64,000 bases of DNA from Escherichia coli (lineage in GTDB: Bacteria; Pseudomonadota; Gammaproteobacteria; Enterobacterales; Enterobacteriaceae). The number at the start of each line of letters is the position of its first letter. Position 1 is the first letter of the stretch. The stretch lies in NCBI RefSeq assembly GCF_003018255.1, contig NZ_CP027440.1. One strand, given 5' to 3'. Below, piece after piece: positions 27,230 to 37,722 of this stretch. The notes below the pieces were generated by a model. The model worked only from the letters and a program-made list of their open reading frames with translations. It was not told the origin of the DNA and ran no database searches. The position numbers were made by a program, and so were the translations under genes.

Positions 27230-29098
27230 ATGAGCACTGATAATAAGCAATCATTGCCCGCGATTACCCTCGCGGCGATTGGAGTTGTCTACGGCGATAT
27301 TGGTACCAGCCCGTTATATACACTTCGTGAATGTTTGTCCGGCCAGTTTGGTTTTGGCGTTGAACGCGATGCCGTGTTTGGCTTTTTATCGCTGATCTTC
27401 TGGCTGCTAATCTTTGTGGTTTCCATTAAATATCTCACCTTCGTGATGCGGGCAGATAACGCCGGTGAAGGGGGGATCCTGACGTTGATGTCGCTTGCCG
27501 GGCGTAATACGTCGGCGCGAACCACATCAATGCTGGTGATTATGGGGCTAATCGGCGGCAGCTTTTTCTATGGTGAAGTCGTCATAACACCCGCTATTTC
27601 GGTGATGTCAGCCATTGAAGGTCTGGAAATCGTCGCCCCGCAGCTGGATACCTGGATAGTTCCCCTCTCAATTATCGTTCTCACTTTATTATTTATGATT
27701 CAAAAACATGGCACGGCTATGGTCGGTAAGCTGTTTGCGCCGATCATGCTGACCTGGTTTTTGATTCTGGCAGGACTGGGGTTACGTAGCATTATTGCTA
27801 ACCCGGAAGTGCTGCATGCGCTGAATCCGATGTGGGCGGTGCATTTCTTCCTTGAATACAAAACGGTTTCTTTTATTGCATTAGGGGCAGTGGTGCTGTC
27901 GATTACGGGGGTCGAGGCGCTGTATGCTGATATGGGGCACTTTGGTAAGTTCCCTATTCGCCTGGCGTGGTTCACCGTCGTATTACCTTCCTTAACTCTT
28001 AATTACTTCGGTCAGGGCGCTCTGTTGTTAAAGAACCCGGAAGCAATTAAGAACCCGTTCTTCCTGTTGGCACCGGACTGGGCGCTGATCCCGCTGCTGA
28101 TCATCGCCGCACTGGCGACGGTAATTGCCTCGCAGGCGGTTATCTCTGGCGTCTTCTCATTGACGCGTCAGGCGGTACGTCTGGGATATTTGTCGCCGAT
28201 GCGCATTATTCACACCTCCGAAATGGAGTCAGGGCAAATCTATATTCCGTTTGTGAACTGGATGCTCTATGTCGCGGTCGTGATTGTGATTGTCAGCTTT
28301 GAGCACTCCAGCAACCTGGCGGCGGCGTACGGGATTGCGGTGACCGGAACCATGGTGCTGACGTCTATTCTCTCGACTACCGTGGCACGTCAGAACTGGC
28401 ACTGGAATAAGTATTTTGTTGCGCTGATCCTGATTGCTTTCCTTTGTGTCGATATTCCATTGTTCACCGCTAACCTCGATAAACTGCTCTCCGGCGGCTG
28501 GTTGCCATTGAGCCTCGGTACGGTGATGTTTATCGTGATGACCACCTGGAAGAGCGAGCGTTTCCGCTTGCTGCGGCGGATGCATGAACATGGCAACTCT
28601 CTGGAGGCGATGATTGCTTCGCTGGAGAAATCACCGCCCGTTCGCGTGCCTGGGACCGCGGTGTATATGTCACGTGCAATCAACGTCATTCCCTTTGCGC
28701 TGATGCATAACCTTAAACATAACAAGGTATTGCATGAGCGGGTGATTCTGTTAACTCTGCGCACCGAAGATGCGCCATATGTCCATAACGTCCGTCGGGT
28801 ACAGATTGAACAACTGTCGCCCACGTTCTGGCGCGTGGTGGCAAGTTATGGTTGGCGAGAAACGCCAAACGTGGAAGAAGTATTCCACCGCTGCGGTCTG
28901 GAAGGATTAAGTTGCCGGATGATGGAAACCTCCTTCTTTATGTCGCATGAGTCGTTGATCCTCGGCAAACGCCCGTGGTATTTGCGTCTGCGCGGTAAGC
29001 TGTACTTGCTGTTGCAACGTAATGCGCTGCGTGCGCCGGATCAATTTGAAATCCCGCCAAACAGGGTTATCGAACTGGGTACTCAGGTCGAAATCTAA
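27230..29098 (+). CDS. kup: Low-affinity potassium uptake transporter Kup (TrkD)
   Basis: 622-aa polytopic membrane protein ([32 protein letters not shown]...). Confidence 0.96.
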
Positions 29099-29234
29099 CG
29101 CCAGACGCCTCCTTTCTCCATAAGGGGGCGTTTTTGTTTTCATGGTTAATCACCATGTAAAACGTTTCGAGGTTGATCACATTTCCGTAACGTCACGATG
29201 GTTTTCCCAACTCAGTCAGGATTAAACTGCGGGT

Positions 29235-29252
29235 CAGCGAAACGTTTCGCTG
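29235..29252 (+). promoter_or_regulatory. Candidate RbsR operator at the rbs promoter
   Basis: Perfect 18-bp palindrome CAGCGAAACGTTTCGCTG ending 12 bp before the rbsD ATG; LacI-family operator-like. Confidence 0.75.
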
Positions 29253-29264
29253 ATGGAGAAAAAA

Positions 29265-29684
29265 ATGAAAAAAGGCACCGTTCTTAATTCTGATATTTCA
29301 TCGGTGATCTCCCGTCTGGGACATACCGATACGCTGGTGGTGTGTGATGCTGGTTTACCCATCCCCAAAAGTACAACGCGTATCGATATGGCATTAACCC
29401 AGGGTGTACCTTCTTTTATGCAGGTGCTGGGCGTCGTCACAAATGAAATGCAGGTCGAGGCAGCCATTATCGCGGAAGAGATCAAACAACATAATCCGCA
29501 ACTCCACGAAACGTTGCTCACTCACCTTGAGCAGCTGCAAAAACACCAGGGAAATACCATTGAAATTCGTTACACCACGCATGAACAATTCAAACAACAA
29601 ACCGCAGAAAGTCAGGCGGTAATTCGCAGCGGAGAATGTTCTCCGTATGCGAATATCATTCTCTGTGCTGGCGTGACGTTCTGA
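29265..29684 (+). CDS. rbsD: D-ribose pyranase RbsD
   Basis: 139 aa from [34 protein letters not shown]...; the track ORF begins 4 codons upstream. Confidence 0.93.
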
Positions 29685-29691
29685 GGCCGTC

Positions 29692-31197
29692 ATGGAAGCA
29701 TTACTTCAGCTTAAAGGCATCGATAAAGCCTTCCCGGGCGTAAAAGCCCTCTCGGGTGCAGCGTTAAATGTCTATCCTGGCCGCGTGATGGCGCTGGTGG
29801 GCGAAAACGGTGCGGGTAAATCCACCATGATGAAAGTGCTTACGGGTATCTATACTCGCGATGCCGGTACGCTTTTATGGCTGGGGAAAGAAACGACGTT
29901 TACCGGGCCGAAATCTTCCCAGGAAGCCGGGATTGGGATTATCCATCAGGAACTGAACCTGATCCCGCAGTTGACCATTGCCGAAAACATTTTCCTCGGT
30001 CGTGAGTTTGTTAATCGCTTTGGCAAAATTGACTGGAAAACCATGTATGCCGAAGCGGATAAATTGCTGGCTAAACTTAACCTGCGCTTTAAAAGCGACA
30101 AGCTGGTGGGCGATCTTTCCATCGGTGACCAGCAAATGGTTGAAATTGCCAAAGTGCTGAGCTTTGAGTCGAAAGTCATCATTATGGATGAACCGACCGA
30201 TGCGCTGACCGATACCGAAACCGAATCCTTGTTCCGCGTCATCCGCGAGCTGAAATCGCAAGGCCGCGGTATTGTCTATATTTCCCACCGCATGAAAGAA
30301 ATCTTCGAGATTTGCGATGACGTTACCGTTTTTCGTGATGGGCAATTTATTGCTGAGCGTGAAGTAGCATCACTGACCGAAGATTCGCTGATTGAGATGA
30401 TGGTGGGCCGCAAGCTGGAAGATCAATATCCGCACCTGGACAAAGCGCCAGGAGATATTCGCCTGAAAGTCGATAATCTCTGCGGACCTGGCGTTAACGA
30501 TGTCTCTTTTACTTTACGCAAAGGCGAAATTCTTGGCGTCTCTGGTTTGATGGGCGCAGGTCGTACCGAACTGATGAAAGTGCTCTACGGCGCACTGCCG
30601 CGCACCAGCGGTTACGTCACCCTGGATGGGCATGAAGTTGTTACCCGTTCACCGCAGGATGGCCTGGCAAACGGCATTGTGTATATCTCCGAAGACCGTA
30701 AACGCGACGGTTTGGTGCTGGGCATGTCAGTAAAAGAGAATATGTCGCTGACCGCGCTGCGCTACTTCAGCCGTACTGGTGGCAGTTTGAAGCATGCCGA
30801 TGAACAGCAGGCAGTAAGTGATTTCATTCGTCTGTTTAATGTGAAAACGCCGTCGATGGAACAGGCAATTGGTCTGCTTTCCGGTGGCAATCAGCAAAAA
30901 GTGGCGATTGCCCGTGGTCTGATGACACGCCCCAAAGTGTTGATCCTCGATGAGCCTACCCGTGGCGTAGATGTCGGCGCGAAAAAAGAGATCTATCAAC
31001 TGATTAACCAGTTCAAAGCCGATGGCTTGAGCATCATTCTGGTGTCATCGGAGATGCCAGAAGTATTAGGCATGAGCGATCGCATCATCGTCATGCATGA
31101 AGGGCATCTCAGCGGGGAATTTACTCGTGAGCAGGCCACCCAGGAAGTGTTAATGGCTGCCGCTGTGGGCAAGCTTAATCGCGTGAATCAGGAGTAA
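29692..31197 (+). CDS. rbsA: Ribose ABC transporter ATP-binding protein RbsA
   Basis: 501-aa ORF with duplicated ABC cassette (Walker A motifs GENGAGKST and GLMGAGRTE). Confidence 0.96.
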
Positions 31198-31201
31198 AAA
31201 A

Positions 31202-32167
31202 ATGACAACCCAGACTGTCTCTGGTCGCCGTTATTTCACGAAAGCGTGGCTGATGGAGCAGAAATCGCTTATCGCTCTGCTGGTGCTGATCGCGATTGTC
31301 TCGACGTTAAGCCCGAACTTTTTCACCATCAATAACTTATTCAATATTCTCCAGCAAACCTCGGTGAACGCCATTATGGCAGTCGGGATGACGCTGGTGA
31401 TCCTGACGTCGGGCATCGACTTGTCGGTAGGTTCTCTATTGGCGCTGACCGGCGCAGTTGCTGCATCTATCGTTGGCATTGAAGTCAATGCGCTGGTGGC
31501 TGTCGCTGCCGCTCTCGCGTTAGGTGCCGCAATTGGTGCGGTAACCGGGGTGATTGTAGCGAAAGGTCGCGTCCAGGCGTTTATCGCTACGCTGGTTATG
31601 ATGCTTTTACTGCGCGGCGTGACCATGGTTTATACCAACGGTAGCCCAGTGAATACCGGCTTTACTGAGAACGCCGATCTGTTTGGCTGGTTTGGGATCG
31701 GTCGTCCGCTGGGCGTACCGACGCCAGTCTGGATCATGGGGATTGTGTTCCTCGCGGCCTGGTACATGCTGCATCACACGCGTTTGGGGCGTTACATCTA
31801 CGCGCTGGGCGGCAACGAAGCGGCAACGCGTCTTTCTGGTATCAACGTCAATAAAATCAAAATCATCGTCTATTCTCTTTGTGGTCTGCTGGCATCGCTG
31901 GCCGGGATCATTGAAGTGGCGCGTCTCTCCTCCGCACAACCCACGGCGGGGACTGGCTATGAGCTGGATGCTATTGCTGCGGTGGTTCTGGGCGGTACGA
32001 GTCTGGCGGGCGGAAAAGGTCGCATTGTTGGGACGTTGATCGGCGCATTAATTCTTGGCTTCCTTAATAATGGATTGAATTTGTTAGGTGTTTCCTCCTA
32101 TTACCAGATGATCGTCAAAGCGGTGGTGATTTTGCTGGCGGTGCTGGTAGACAACAAAAAGCAGTAA
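31202..32167 (+). CDS. rbsC: Ribose ABC transporter permease RbsC
   Basis: 321-aa polytopic membrane protein following rbsA. Confidence 0.95.
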   Translation: MTTQTVSGRRYFTKAWLMEQKSLIALLVLIAIVSTLSPNFFTINNLFNILQQTSVNAIMAVGMTLVILTSGIDLSVGSLLALTGAVAASIVGIEVNALVAVAAALALGAAIGAVTGVIVAKGRVQAFIATLVMMLLLRGVTMVYTNGSPVNTGFTENADLFGWFGIGRPLGVPTPVWIMGIVFLAAWYMLHHTRLGRYIYALGGNEAATRLSGINVNKIKIIVYSLCGLLASLAGIIEVARLSSAQPTAGTGYELDAIAAVVLGGTSLAGGKGRIVGTLIGALILGFLNNGLNLLGVSSYYQMIVKAVVILLAVLVDNKKQ

Positions 32168-32191
32168 TAACGACTACAGGACATCTTGAAT

Positions 32192-33082
32192 ATGAACATG
32201 AAAAAACTGGCTACCCTGGTTTCCGCTGTTGCGCTAAGCGCCACCGTCAGTGCGAATGCGATGGCAAAAGACACCATCGCGCTGGTGGTCTCCACGCTTA
32301 ACAACCCGTTCTTTGTATCGCTGAAAGATGGCGCGCAGAAAGAGGCGGATAAACTTGGCTATAACCTGGTGGTGCTGGACTCCCAGAACAACCCGGCGAA
32401 AGAGCTGGCGAACGTGCAGGACTTAACCGTTCGCGGCACCAAAATTCTGCTGATTAACCCGACCGACTCCGACGCAGTGGGTAATGCTGTGAAGATGGCT
32501 AACCAGGCGAACATCCCGGTTATCACTCTTGACCGCCAGGCAACGAAAGGTGAAGTGGTGAGCCACATTGCTTCTGATAACGTACTGGGCGGCAAAATCG
32601 CCGGTGATTACATCGCGAAGAAAGCGGGTGAAGGTGCCAAAGTTATCGAGCTGCAAGGCATTGCCGGTACATCCGCAGCCCGTGAACGTGGCGAAGGCTT
32701 CCAGCAGGCTGTTGCTGCTCACAAGTTTAATGTTCTTGCCAGCCAGCCAGCAGATTTTGATCGCACTAAAGGTTTGAACGTAATGCAGAACCTGTTGACC
32801 GCACATCCGGATGTTCAGGCTGTATTCGCGCAGAATGATGAAATGGCGCTGGGCGCGCTGCGCGCACTGCAAACTGCCGGTAAATCGGATGTGATGGTCG
32901 TCGGATTTGACGGTACACCGGATGGCGAAAAAGCGGTGAATGATGGCAAACTAGCAGCGACTATCGCTCAGCTACCCGATCAGATTGGCGCGAAAGGCGT
33001 CGAAACCGCAGATAAAGTACTGAAAGGCGAGAAAGTTCAGGCTAAGTATCCGGTTGATCTGAAACTGGTTGTTAAGCAGTAG
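32192..33082 (+). CDS. rbsB: Periplasmic ribose-binding protein RbsB
   Basis: 296 aa from [25 protein letters not shown] (signal peptide); the track ORF begins two codons upstream at a TTG. Confidence 0.95.
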
Positions 33083-33207
33083 TTTTAATCAGGTTGTATG
33101 ACCTGATGGTGACATAAATACGGCATCGACAGATGAACGTGTAATATAAAGAAAAGCAGGGCACGCGCCACCCTAACACGGTGGCGCATTTTATGGACAT
33201 CCCGAAT

Positions 33208-34137
33208 ATGCAAAACGCAGGCAGCCTCGTTGTTCTTGGCAGCATTAATGCTGACCACATTCTTAATCTTCAATCTTTTCCTACCCCAGGCGAAACCGTA
33301 ACCGGTAACCACTATCAGGTTGCATTTGGCGGCAAAGGCGCGAATCAGGCTGTGGCTGCTGGGCGTAGCGGTGCGAATATCGCGTTTATTGCCTGTACTG
33401 GCGATGACAGCATTGGCGAGAGCGTTCGCCAGCAGCTCGCCACTGATAACATCGATATTTCTCCGGTCAGCGTGATCAAAGGCGAATCAACAGGTGTGGC
33501 GCTGATTTTTGTTAATGGCGAAGGTGAGAATGTCATTGGTATTCATGCCGGCGCTAATGCTGCCCTTTCCCCGGCGCTGGTGGAAGCGCAACGTGAGCGT
33601 ATTGCCAACGCGTCAGCATTATTAATGCAGCTGGAATCACCACTCGAAAGTGTGATGGCAGCGGCGAAAATCGCCCATCAAAATAAGACTATCGTTGCGC
33701 TTAACCCGGCTCCGGCTCGCGAACTTCCTGACGAACTGCTGGCGCTGGTGGACATTATTACGCCAAACGAAACGGAAGCAGAAAAGCTCACCGGTATTCG
33801 TGTTGAAAATGATGAAGATGCAGCGAAGGCGGCGCAGGTACTGCATGAAAAAGGTATCCGTACTGTACTGATTACTTTAGGAAGTCGTGGTGTATGGGCT
33901 AGCGTGAATGGTGAAGGTCAGCGCGTTCCTGGATTCCGGGTGCAGGCTGTCGATACCATTGCTGCCGGAGATACCTTTAACGGCGCGTTAATCACGGCGT
34001 TGCTGGAAGAAAAACCATTGCCAGAGGCGATTCGGTTTGCCCATGCTGCCGCTGCGATTGCCGTAACACGTAAAGGCGCACAACCTTCCGTACCGTGGCG
34101 TGAAGAGATCGACGCATTTTTAGACAGGCAGAGGTGA
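33208..34137 (+). CDS. rbsK: Ribokinase RbsK
   Basis: 309 aa from MQNAGSLVVLGSINADHI...; PfkB-family motifs; the track ORF begins upstream at a GTG. Confidence 0.94.
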   Translation: MQNAGSLVVLGSINADHILNLQSFPTPGETVTGNHYQVAFGGKGANQAVAAGRSGANIAFIACTGDDSIGESVRQQLATDNIDISPVSVIKGESTGVALIFVNGEGENVIGIHAGANAALSPALVEAQRERIANASALLMQLESPLESVMAAAKIAHQNKTIVALNPAPARELPDELLALVDIITPNETEAEKLTGIRVENDEDAAKAAQVLHEKGIRTVLITLGSRGVWASVNGEGQRVPGFRVQAVDTIAAGDTFNGALITALLEEKPLPEAIRFAHAAAAIAVTRKGAQPSVPWREEIDAFLDRQR

Positions 34138-34140
34138 CGC

Positions 34141-35133
34141 TTGGCTACAATGAAAGATGTTGCCCGCCTGGCGGGCGTTTCTACCTCAACAGTTTCTCAC
34201 GTTATCAATAAAGATCGCTTCGTCAGTGAAGCGATTACCGCCAAAGTTGAAGCGGCGATTAAAGAACTCAATTACGCGCCATCAGCCCTGGCGCGTAGCC
34301 TCAAACTCAATCAAACACATACCATTGGCATGTTGATCACTGCCAGTACCAATCCTTTCTATTCAGAACTGGTGCGTGGCGTTGAACGCAGCTGCTTCGA
34401 ACGCGGTTATAGTCTCGTCCTTTGCAATACCGAAGGCGATGAACAGCGGATGAATCGCAATCTGGAAACGCTGATGCAAAAACGCGTTGATGGCTTGCTG
34501 TTACTGTGCACCGAAACGCATCAACCTTCGCGTGAAATCATGCAACGTTATCCGACAGTGCCTACTGTGATGATGGACTGGGCTCCGTTCGATGGCGACA
34601 GCGATCTTATTCAGGATAACTCGTTGCTGGGCGGAGACTTAGCAACGCAATATCTGATCGATAAAGGTCATACCCGTATCGCCTGTATTACCGGTCCGCT
34701 GGATAAAACTCCGGCGCGCCTGCGGTTGGAAGGTTATCGGGCGGCGATGAAACGTGCGGGTCTCAACATTCCTGATGGCTATGAAGTCACTGGTGATTTT
34801 GAATTTAACGGCGGGTTTGACGCCATGCGCCAACTGTTATCACATCCGCTGCGTCCTCAGGCCGTCTTTACCGGAAATGACGCTATGGCTGTTGGCGTTT
34901 ACCAGGCGCTGTATCAGGCAGAGTTACAGGTTCCGCAGGATATCGCGGTGATTGGCTATGACGATATCGAACTGGCAAGCTTTATGACGCCACCATTAAC
35001 CACTATCCACCAACCGAAAGATGAACTGGGGGAACTGGCGATTGATGTACTCATCCATCGGATAACCCAGCCGACCCTTCAGCAACAACGATTACAACTT
35101 ACTCCGATTCTGATGGAACGCGGTTCGGCTTAG
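34141..35133 (+). CDS. rbsR: LacI-family ribose operon repressor RbsR
   Basis: 330-aa ORF ([24 protein letters not shown]...), N-terminal HTH; apparent TTG start; 3' end overlaps convergent hsrA. Confidence 0.93.
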
Positions 35134-36526
35134 ATTTACGCTGTCTTTTGATCAAATTATTACCATCAGTTGTTTTCAGAAGCATGAACATTGCTGCTGA
35201 AGCAACAGTAATAATGCCCATCGTGATAAACGTATAGTGGAATTGTTCGACTGTCGTTGTGCCTTCCATCCCTTCATAAACGCGAAGGACGGCCGCACTT
35301 ACAGCAACGCCTAAACTGATAGACAGTTGCTGCGTGACCGCCAGAACACTGTTACCGCTGCTGGCGTTGTCATCGGTCAGATCGGCAAGTGTGATGGTAT
35401 TCATCGCGGTAAATTGCGTCGACATAGCCATCCCTAATATAAACAACGGCAAGATCAGCATCCATATCGCCATTGCCGGTGATTGCAAAGAGAACTGAGC
35501 GATCATTAGCCCAATAATCACCGTGATCCCAACTAACGTATGGCGATAGCCCAGACGACGTAAGACTTGGGTAACCATCGATTTTGCAATAATGGAACCT
35601 AACGCTGTCGGTGCCATCATACAGCCGGCAATAAACGCCTGATAACCAAATCCTACCTGTAACATCAATGGCATAAGGAACGGTACACAACCGGTCCCCA
35701 GACGGGTTGCAATATTGCCTACGATACCGATCGAGAAAGTGCGGGTTTTAAATAAATCTAATGAAATTAATGGGTTTGGCGTGCGTCGTGCATGGAGAAT
35801 ATAGAGAAGCAGTAACCCGATGCTGGTGACAATTACCGTCAAGGCAATCCAACTGGCGACAATCTTTTCCCCGAATAGCTCTATTCCGCTTGAGAAGAGA
35901 ACAAGGCTAAGGCCAAACAGCAAAAAGCCAGTGATATCGAATCTGCGTCGTGCGGTGGTGAAATTGGGCATATGTTTGCGCGCGTAAAGAAGGCCCGCAA
36001 TACCTATGGGGATATTGATTAAAAATATCCAGTGCCAGGTTGCCCAGGTGACCAGCACGCCGCCAAGAACAGGGCCTAAAATTGGCCCCACCAGACCCGG
36101 CATGGCGACAAAATTCAATACAGGAAGAAGCTCATTACGAGGATAAGCGCGCAGTAAGGCCAGCCGAGCAACAGGCATCATCATTGCGCCGCCTATCCCC
36201 TGAATAACCCGGAAGACAACCAGCTGTGGTAGCGAGTTAGAAAGTGCGCAGGCCAGAGAACCCAACGTGAACAGACTCACGGCAAGAGTAAATATGCGAC
36301 GCGTACCGAAGCGATCGGCTAGCCATCCGCTTACCGGAATAAGCATCGCCACCGTCAGCGTATAACTGATGATGGCTGATTGCATCGCGAGAGGAGAACG
36401 ATTAAGGCTATGAGCGATTGCGGGTAAGGCGGTATTCAGAATAGTGGCATCAAGTGCCTGCATGAAGAAGGCCATCGCCGCGATCCACGGCAAACCCGCC
36501 ATACTGCGCTTCTTTTTATCGCTCAT
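35099..36526 (-). CDS. hsrA: MFS transporter HsrA (YieO)
   Basis: 475-aa, roughly 14-TM drug/H+ antiporter-like ORF at the expected K-12 position. Confidence 0.88.
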
Positions 36527-37393: not shown

Positions 37394-37421
37394 TTGTCAG
37401 GCCGGAATAACTCCCTATAAT
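37394..37421 (+). promoter_or_regulatory. rrn P1 promoter
   Basis: TTGTCA (37394-37399), 16-bp spacer, TATAAT (37416-37421), followed by a GC-rich discriminator (GCGCC); A/T-rich UP-element-like DNA upstream. Confidence 0.8.
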
Positions 37422-37512
37422 GCGCCACCACTGACACGGAACAACGGCAAACACGCCGCCGGGTTAGCGGGGTTCTCCTGAGAATTCCGGCAGAGAAAGC
37501 AAAAACAAATGC

Positions 37513-37540
37513 TTGACTCTGTAGCGGGAAAGCGTATTAT
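37513..37540 (+). promoter_or_regulatory. rrn P2 promoter
   Basis: TTGACT (37513-37518), 16-bp spacer, TATTAT (37535-37540), about 120 bp downstream of P1. Confidence 0.75.
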
Positions 37541-37722
37541 GCACACCCCGCGCCGCTGAGAAAAAAGCGAAGCGGCACTGCTCTTTAACAATTTATCAGA
37601 CAATCTGTGTGGGCACTCGAAGATACGGATTCTTAACGTCGCAAGACGAAAAATGAATACCAAGTCTCAAGAGTGAACACGTAATTCATTACGAAGTTTA
37701 ATTCTTTGAGCATCAAACTTTT

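Follow-up and report, generated by a model that had tools for sequence, protein, structure and literature searches.

The intergenic region between kup and the Escherichia coli ribose operon carries a perfectly dyad-symmetric sequence directly ahead of rbsD. The question raised by this locus is whether this palindrome is the operator through which RbsR, the LacI-family repressor encoded at the 3' end of the same operon, controls transcription, as an earlier note on the DNA had proposed from the letters alone, and how the surrounding promoter is arranged. By "the window" we mean the whole stretch of DNA that was analysed, 64,000 nucleotides (64 kb) in length. It is E. coli chromosome, 100% identical to many E. 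coli genomes, in which kup is followed by rbsDACBKR. Of 5426 complete E. coli genomes, 5411 contain region 29000-29400, where the annotated genes are kup and rbsD. Window positions are converted to K-12 MG1655 coordinates (NC_000913.3) by adding 3904086, and annotation was transferred with this offset; the rbsD ATG at 29265 is therefore K-12 position 3933351. The intergenic region differs from that of K-12 MG1655 at two bases, both outside the palindrome; one is position 29231, three bases outside the palindrome, where the window strain has C and K-12 has T. The genes and accessory elements of the locus are as follows.

27230-29098: kup (open reading frame list and K-12 annotation)
29103-29143, plus strand: intrinsic terminator of kup, a 12-pair stem (29103-29133) and then TTTTTGTTTT
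29255-29258, plus strand: Shine-Dalgarno sequence of rbsD, GGAG, 2 nt past the 18-bp palindrome and 6 nt before the ATG
29265-29684, plus strand: rbsD, D-ribose pyranase, the first gene of the operon (open reading frame, K-12 annotation, PF05025)
29692-31197, plus strand: rbsA (open reading frame and K-12 annotation)
31202-32167, plus strand: rbsC (open reading frame and K-12 annotation)
32192-33082, plus strand: rbsB (open reading frame and K-12 annotation)
33208-34137, plus strand: rbsK (open reading frame and K-12 annotation)
34141-35133, plus strand: rbsR, LacI-family ribose repressor, at the 3' end of the operon (PF00356, PDB match)

The kup terminator had been described earlier as a terminator-like hairpin at about 29105-29135, and the analysis bears this out: a T-run follows the stem, the hairpin folds with -18.8 kcal/mol (z = -3.6), and none of 200 shuffled sequences folds as well. 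Further downstream, the sRNA RbsZ is annotated in K-12 at the end of rbsB (window 32959-33192, NC_000913.3 3937045-3937278); an Rfam scan of 28500-35500 returned no family at gathering score, the annotated RbsZ included.

The 18-bp palindrome that the earlier note had described, CAGCGAAACGTTTCGCTG at 29235-29252, is exact, and its symmetry extends by one extra base on each side to a perfect palindrome of 20 bp, TCAGCGAAACGTTTCGCTGA (29234-29253), with its dyad between 29243 and 29244. The symmetry ends at these positions because G29233 and T29254 are not complementary. Inside the palindrome lies a 16-bp core, AGCGAAACGTTTCGCT (29236-29251), which is the unit conserved across genera and occurs only once in the window. 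Its half-sites, AGCGAAAC and GTTTCGCT, are fully symmetric about a central CG, which fits the 14-20 bp inverted repeats of the LacI/GalR family. When the window was searched for other RbsR-like sites, a single match with three mismatches was found, at 11581, and this is at chance level. From the end of the 18-mer it is 12 nt to the annotated ATG of rbsD, just as had been claimed. In the open reading frame list, rbsD opens instead at an ATG at 29253 (143 aa), the A of which is the last base of the palindrome, while the annotated start at 29265 (139 aa) is the ATG with GGAG before it. We do not take the ATG at 29253 as the start of rbsD since it is missing in most other genera, which have AGTGGAG there, and since GGAG precedes 29265. 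In the comparison of upstream regions, TGGAG or TGGGG is conserved at the rbsD Shine-Dalgarno position.

The repressor that would be expected to recognize this palindrome is encoded where the earlier note had placed it. The rbsR open reading frame is intact and specifies a protein of 330 aa with a LacI helix-turn-helix domain (PF00356) and periplasmic-binding-protein (Peripla_BP) domains. It matches the protein of PDB entries 9ny7/9ny8, "Ribose operon repressor," over residues 2-330 (E = 6.5e-221), and residues 2-66, the DNA-binding domain, are identical to those of the crystallised protein. The operator DNA that was co-crystallised with RbsR, rbsO, is the 30-mer GTGGGTCAGCGAAACGTTTCGCTGATGGAG (bioRxiv 10.1101/2025.04.02.646877; PDB 9NY7/9NY8). 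This oligonucleotide is the K-12 sequence of window 29229-29258, with the 20-bp palindrome at its centre. The window shares 29 of its 30 bases, and the lone mismatch lies in the flank, outside the palindrome. In the RbsR-rbsO structure, hinge helices occupy the minor groove and the DNA is bent by 45 degrees, and a crystal structure of RbsR with ribose was published alongside it (bioRxiv 10.1101/2025.04.02.646877). RbsR is described as a ribose-inducible repressor of rbsDACBKR in passages of papers that cite Mauzy & Hermodson 1992 (Protein Sci 1:831). Likewise, an RbsR orthologue from Serratia binds DNA in electrophoretic mobility shift assays (EMSA) and is released by ribose.

Comparison with known operators thus shows a palindrome that is identical to the published rbsO core and has the central CG repeat of the LacI/GalR type, and the reading of it as an RbsR operator is borne out by its place within the oligonucleotide crystallised with RbsR. 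We consider it very nearly certain that the palindrome is rbsO, the RbsR operator of the E. coli rbsDACBKR operon, acting by the mechanism proposed below. As such it is already known and is textbook biology: the palindrome, the locus and the repressor are the same as those of the E. coli rbsO/RbsR system, and nothing of substance is different, the base at 29231 aside. An operator that had been described in 1992 was, in other words, correctly re-identified from raw sequence by means of a palindrome, a nearby LacI-family gene and the position with respect to the start codon.

To place the palindrome relative to the promoter, we used a class I forward transcription start site from dRNA-seq of E. 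coli BW25113, FWD_(I)-3931345 in U00096.2 coordinates, which is flagged as overlapping RegulonDB (PMC4681348 supplement). Adding 1977 (U00096.2 to U00096.3) and then subtracting 3904086 converts this entry to window coordinates. As a check, the same conversion places the rrnC P1 entry at 37430 and the P2 entry at 37547, each as far from its -10 hexamer as expected. The rrnC P1 promoter reads TTGTCA...TATAAT (window 37396-37430, start 37430), and P2 reads TTGACT...TATTAT (window 37515-37547, start 37547). The SMRT-Cappable-seq files contain no transcription start entry for the rbsD promoter. The elements of the promoter are as follows.

29163-29184: CRP-like site, with the core TTCGA-GGTTGA-TCACA at 29166-29181 and its centre at 29173.5, which is -62.5
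29223-29228, plus strand: -10 hexamer, TAAACT, 7 nt before +1 and conserved
29236, plus strand: transcription start of rbsD (rbsDp +1), the A of TCAGCG, from one dRNA-seq data set and its RegulonDB flag

Counting from this start, the palindrome extends from -2 to +18 and the core from +1 to +16, the dyad is at +8.5, and the rbsD leader is 29 nt long. The earlier note had allowed that the palindrome might lie within the transcribed leader and overlap no promoter. Instead, it spans the start site, and the promoter overlap stands because the site covers both the start point and the DNA that lies under RNA polymerase. The footprint obtained by Mauzy and Hermodson reportedly covers a dyad that overlaps the start site. 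The -35 element, GGTTTT at 29200-29205, is poor, and a scan of 28900-29500 for consensus sigma-70 promoters produced no match; we therefore placed the rbs promoter from the published start site together with conservation. A weak -35 element is as expected for an activator-dependent promoter and fits CRP dependence, without being positive evidence for it. A block in the -35 area, GATGGTTTTC (29198-29207), resembles TTGACA poorly and is strongly conserved, with a mean of 0.90 for the commonest base and no variation in 4 of its 10 columns. The block may serve as a contact for the alpha or sigma subunit of polymerase at a CRP-dependent promoter.

The conservation of these elements was assessed with a protein-guided scan that took one genome per species and yielded 80 loci with RbsD 86-99% identical. 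The loci represent about 20 genera of Enterobacteriaceae, including Escherichia, Salmonella, Citrobacter, Enterobacter, Klebsiella, Raoultella, Kluyvera, Kosakonia and Siccibacter. The central AAACGTTT is found in all 80, about 25-32 nt before the rbsD ATG, and 15 of the 16 columns of the core are invariant across the 80 unique upstream regions. By contrast, the commonest base averages just 0.53 in the 7-nt spacer between the -10 hexamer and the core, and 0.62 in the spacer between -35 and -10. Only Escherichia has TC...GA as the outer ends of the palindrome; the usual reading in other genera is CAGCG...CGCTAG. Of the 82 upstream regions examined (the 80 loci, the window and K-12), 77 have a TAnAnT hexamer 6-7 nt upstream of the core, as TAAACT in 37 loci and TACACT in 30, and this spacing puts the start at the core's first A in the other genera too. 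The comparative data add a precise picture of the promoter, comprising its start site, its -10 hexamer, the CRP site and the 16-bp core, which does not vary across about 20 genera.

Beyond these genera, Proteus mirabilis (RbsD 60% identical) has the same core directly before the Shine-Dalgarno sequence, and in four loci from Vibrionaceae a closely related palindrome, either ATCGAAACGTTTCGAT or a version of it, stands upstream of rbsD at a distance of 83-141 nt. The Proteus and Vibrionaceae loci were drawn from plasmid-collection records, several of which are the size of chromosomes or chromids; a search for RbsD homologues returned only close Enterobacteriaceae relatives among the matches listed and contributed nothing new to the 80-locus scan. 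In Vibrio sp. HDW18 (locus L083, 1201-2817), rbsD is followed by a fucP-type sugar:H+ symporter in place of rbsA. The presence of ATCGAAACGTTTCGAT upstream of rbsD in this strain suggests that the RbsR-type operator accompanies rbsD in this different transporter context. Within E. coli, 5407 of 5426 genomes contain an exact word that takes in the entire palindrome; at 98-100% identity, the variation there is too low to inform on constraint. One record in the comparison, CACSKA010000004.1 (locus L064), is labelled Chryseobacterium sp. 18061. Its rbs locus is near-identical to that of Citrobacter sp. 18056 (locus L063), its RbsD is 89% identical to E. coli RbsD, and its promoter layout is enterobacterial. 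The assembly is probably mislabelled or contaminated.

Given that transcription starts at 29236, the whole core is transcribed, and the predicted minimum-energy fold of the leader includes a 5'-terminal hairpin. It could therefore be argued that selection acts on an RNA structure, a 7-bp stem-loop at the 5' end of the rbsD mRNA near the Shine-Dalgarno sequence that could stabilise the transcript or tune translation, and that the symmetry of the DNA is a by-product. We judge this very improbable. The leader folds no better than shuffled sequences (z = -1.0; 34 of 200 fold as well), the related palindrome of Vibrionaceae sits at a different position relative to rbsD, and it is a DNA duplex that was crystallised with RbsR. 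Furthermore, the element has no substitutions in the 80 loci, loop bases included, and no compensatory changes, a pattern that argues for base-specific recognition by a protein rather than for a stem. The hairpin may still have some secondary effect on the mRNA. A reading of the leader hairpin as an attenuator or terminator was rejected, as no U-run follows the hairpin.

If a protein recognizes the palindrome, it might be another LacI-family paralogue such as PurR, whose operators are 16-bp palindromes that also centre on AAACGTTT. No paralogue is closer to RbsR than PurR (E = 5e-95, second among solved proteins); the recognition helices of the two are almost identical, and they share the hinge ARSLK. 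Their binding motifs are related as well, and a duplicated RbsR is the presumed origin of PurR (PMC4052901). The two repressors respond to their ligands in opposite ways, in that PurR needs its ligand, a co-repressor, in order to bind DNA and RbsR binds when its ligand is absent (PMC4052901). Despite these likenesses, a PurR operator is a still more improbable identity for the palindrome than an RNA hairpin, as RbsR binds the palindrome sequence in the crystal and the palindrome fronts a ribose operon carrying rbsR in every genus examined. The sequences of the operators themselves also differ. The PurR box is ACGCAAACGTTTGCGT, which departs from AGCGAAACGTTTCGCT at +/-5 to +/-7, or 6 of 16 bases.

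That the palindrome is a product of chance, with no function, is the least credible explanation and can be practically dismissed: although about 8% of simulated windows (23 of 300 first-order Markov simulations) hold a perfect palindrome of at least 20 bp somewhere, so that length alone is only moderately unusual for 64 kb even for the longest gapless perfect palindrome in the window (the runners-up are 14 bp), chance does not account for its placement in a 166-bp promoter-bearing intergenic region before an operon that ends in a LacI-family repressor gene, nor for its invariance in about 20 genera with variable flanks, its identity to the published operator rbsO, or its presence as part of an exact word in nearly all of the E. 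coli genomes counted above.

The binding protein, the bound sequence and the start site at rbsO are established by the literature or by identity to published reagents. In the mechanism that we propose, a dimer of RbsR would bind the two half-sites of the core, its hinge helices entering the minor groove at the central CG step. Bound in this way, RbsR would cover -2 to +18, which includes the start site and the early transcribed region needed by RNA polymerase, so that initiation would be blocked. Binding of D-ribose to the sugar-binding domain would then cause RbsR to release the DNA, and full expression of rbs would also need cAMP-CRP acting from a class I site near -62.5. The position of the operator, taken with the parallel to lacO1, points to repression by occlusion of polymerase rather than by a roadblock.

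This arrangement resembles that of the lac promoter. Both operators are centred a short way downstream of the start, lacO1 at +11 and rbsO at +8.5, and upstream the lac promoter has a class I CRP site near -61.5 and the rbs promoter a candidate one. LacI and RbsR are also alike in being released by a sugar inducer and in inserting hinge helices into the minor groove of bent DNA. The two systems differ in the operator, since lacO1 has an extra central base pair that is absent from the perfectly symmetric rbsO (bioRxiv 10.1101/2025.04.02.646877), and in the repressor: the crystals contain RbsR dimers, while LacI forms tetramers and loops the DNA to auxiliary operators.

The earlier note had also proposed a search for a CRP site upstream of the palindrome. 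A candidate is there, TTCGA-N6-TCACA: its right half, GATCACA, is invariant in all 80 loci, as are 16 of the 22 columns of the CRP site. On sequence alone its resemblance to the consensus is not above chance, as the core agrees with TGTGA-N6-TCACA at 8 of 10 positions, a level at which the window contains 21 matches against 27 expected, and a search of the window with the 22-mer CRP consensus, at up to three mismatches, found no match. The centre at -62.5 is a class I position (near -61.5) at a promoter lacking a consensus -35 element, and the activity of the rbsD promoter rises with added cAMP (PMC4304618). Since the sequence match is at chance level, the assignment to CRP rests on conservation, position and the literature.

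The left half of this CRP-like site is overlapped by the right half of a second sequence that resembles the operator.

29156-29171: candidate distal element resembling the operator, "O2," TGTAAAACGTTTCGAG; the dyad is 29163.5, which is -72.5

The dyad of this element lies 80 bp upstream of the rbsO dyad. An exact 10-mer, AAACGTTTCG, occurs at only two places in the window, in rbsO and at 29160-29169, again 80 bp apart. In E. coli, the distal element agrees with the operator core at 11 of 16 positions, which by mismatch count is not above chance. In other genera, Proteus among them, it takes the form (A/T)GCGAAACGTTTCGAT and matches the operator core at 14-15 of 16 positions; GCGAAACGTTTCGA, the reading in Salmonella and Klebsiella among others, is a near-copy of the operator. 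The Escherichia element has two positions changed (GTAAAAC) and is weakened. The conserved form at 29156-29171 is (GCG)AAACGTTTCGA, of which AAACGTTTCGA shows no change in any of the 80 loci or in Proteus, while GCG, at -7 to -5 of the element and outside the CRP 22-mer, is present in 61 of 65 unique sequences.

The two flanks of the CRP site differ in conservation. The six bases at the left of the distal element, GCGAAA, lie outside the CRP 22-mer, and there the commonest base averages 0.97; for the six bases on its opposite side the figure is 0.75. The imbalance hints at a further RbsR site, with its centre at -72.5. The six bases outside the CRP 22-mer are conserved to the same degree as the operator, and CRP binding would not by itself explain this. 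That the distal element is a second, unannotated RbsR operator at the rbs promoter is nevertheless a tentative proposal, to which we give somewhat less than an even chance. A 2012 paper that cites a regulatory database gives only one annotated operator for rbsDACBKR, and operator spacing made no difference to an RbsR chimera (PMC3505978).

If RbsR does bind the distal element, repression would be two-way, by occlusion of the start site at rbsO and by exclusion of CRP upstream, and if the element is functional, rbs would be another case of a sugar repressor that competes directly with CRP. In lac, lacO3 is a weaker upstream operator-like site that adjoins or overlaps the CRP site at some 80-90 bp from the main operator, and the candidate distal element may be its analogue in rbs. 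Unlike its lacO3 analogue, the distal element is spaced 78-80 bp from rbsO, or about 7.5 helical turns, which is out of phase for looping. Nothing at the locus apart from the distal element is likely to be new, and the element may already be listed in RegPrecise or in Laikova et al. 2001 (FEMS Microbiol Lett 205:315).

Two E. coli strains have a rearranged rbs promoter region. In E. coli PEC209 (locus L087, NZ_CM168015.1, 3071-3086), an exact 80-bp deletion between the AAACGTTTCG direct repeats, corresponding to window 29170-29249, has removed the right half of the CRP site, the -35 and -10 elements, the start site and the left half of rbsO, and leaves TGTAAAACGTTTCGCTGATGGAG. The rbs operon of this strain should therefore lack its promoter. 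The deletion junction is found in one of 5426 genomes. In E. coli B REL606 (locus L088, NC_012967.1, 4602-5971), IS150 lies between the kup stop codon and rbsD; this is the IS150 to which the repeated loss of rbs in the long-term evolution experiment is reportedly linked, by recurrent deletions. The intergenic region is matched just in part by about 96 E. coli genomes, with 98 extra match places, and insertions like that of REL606 may explain these partial matches.
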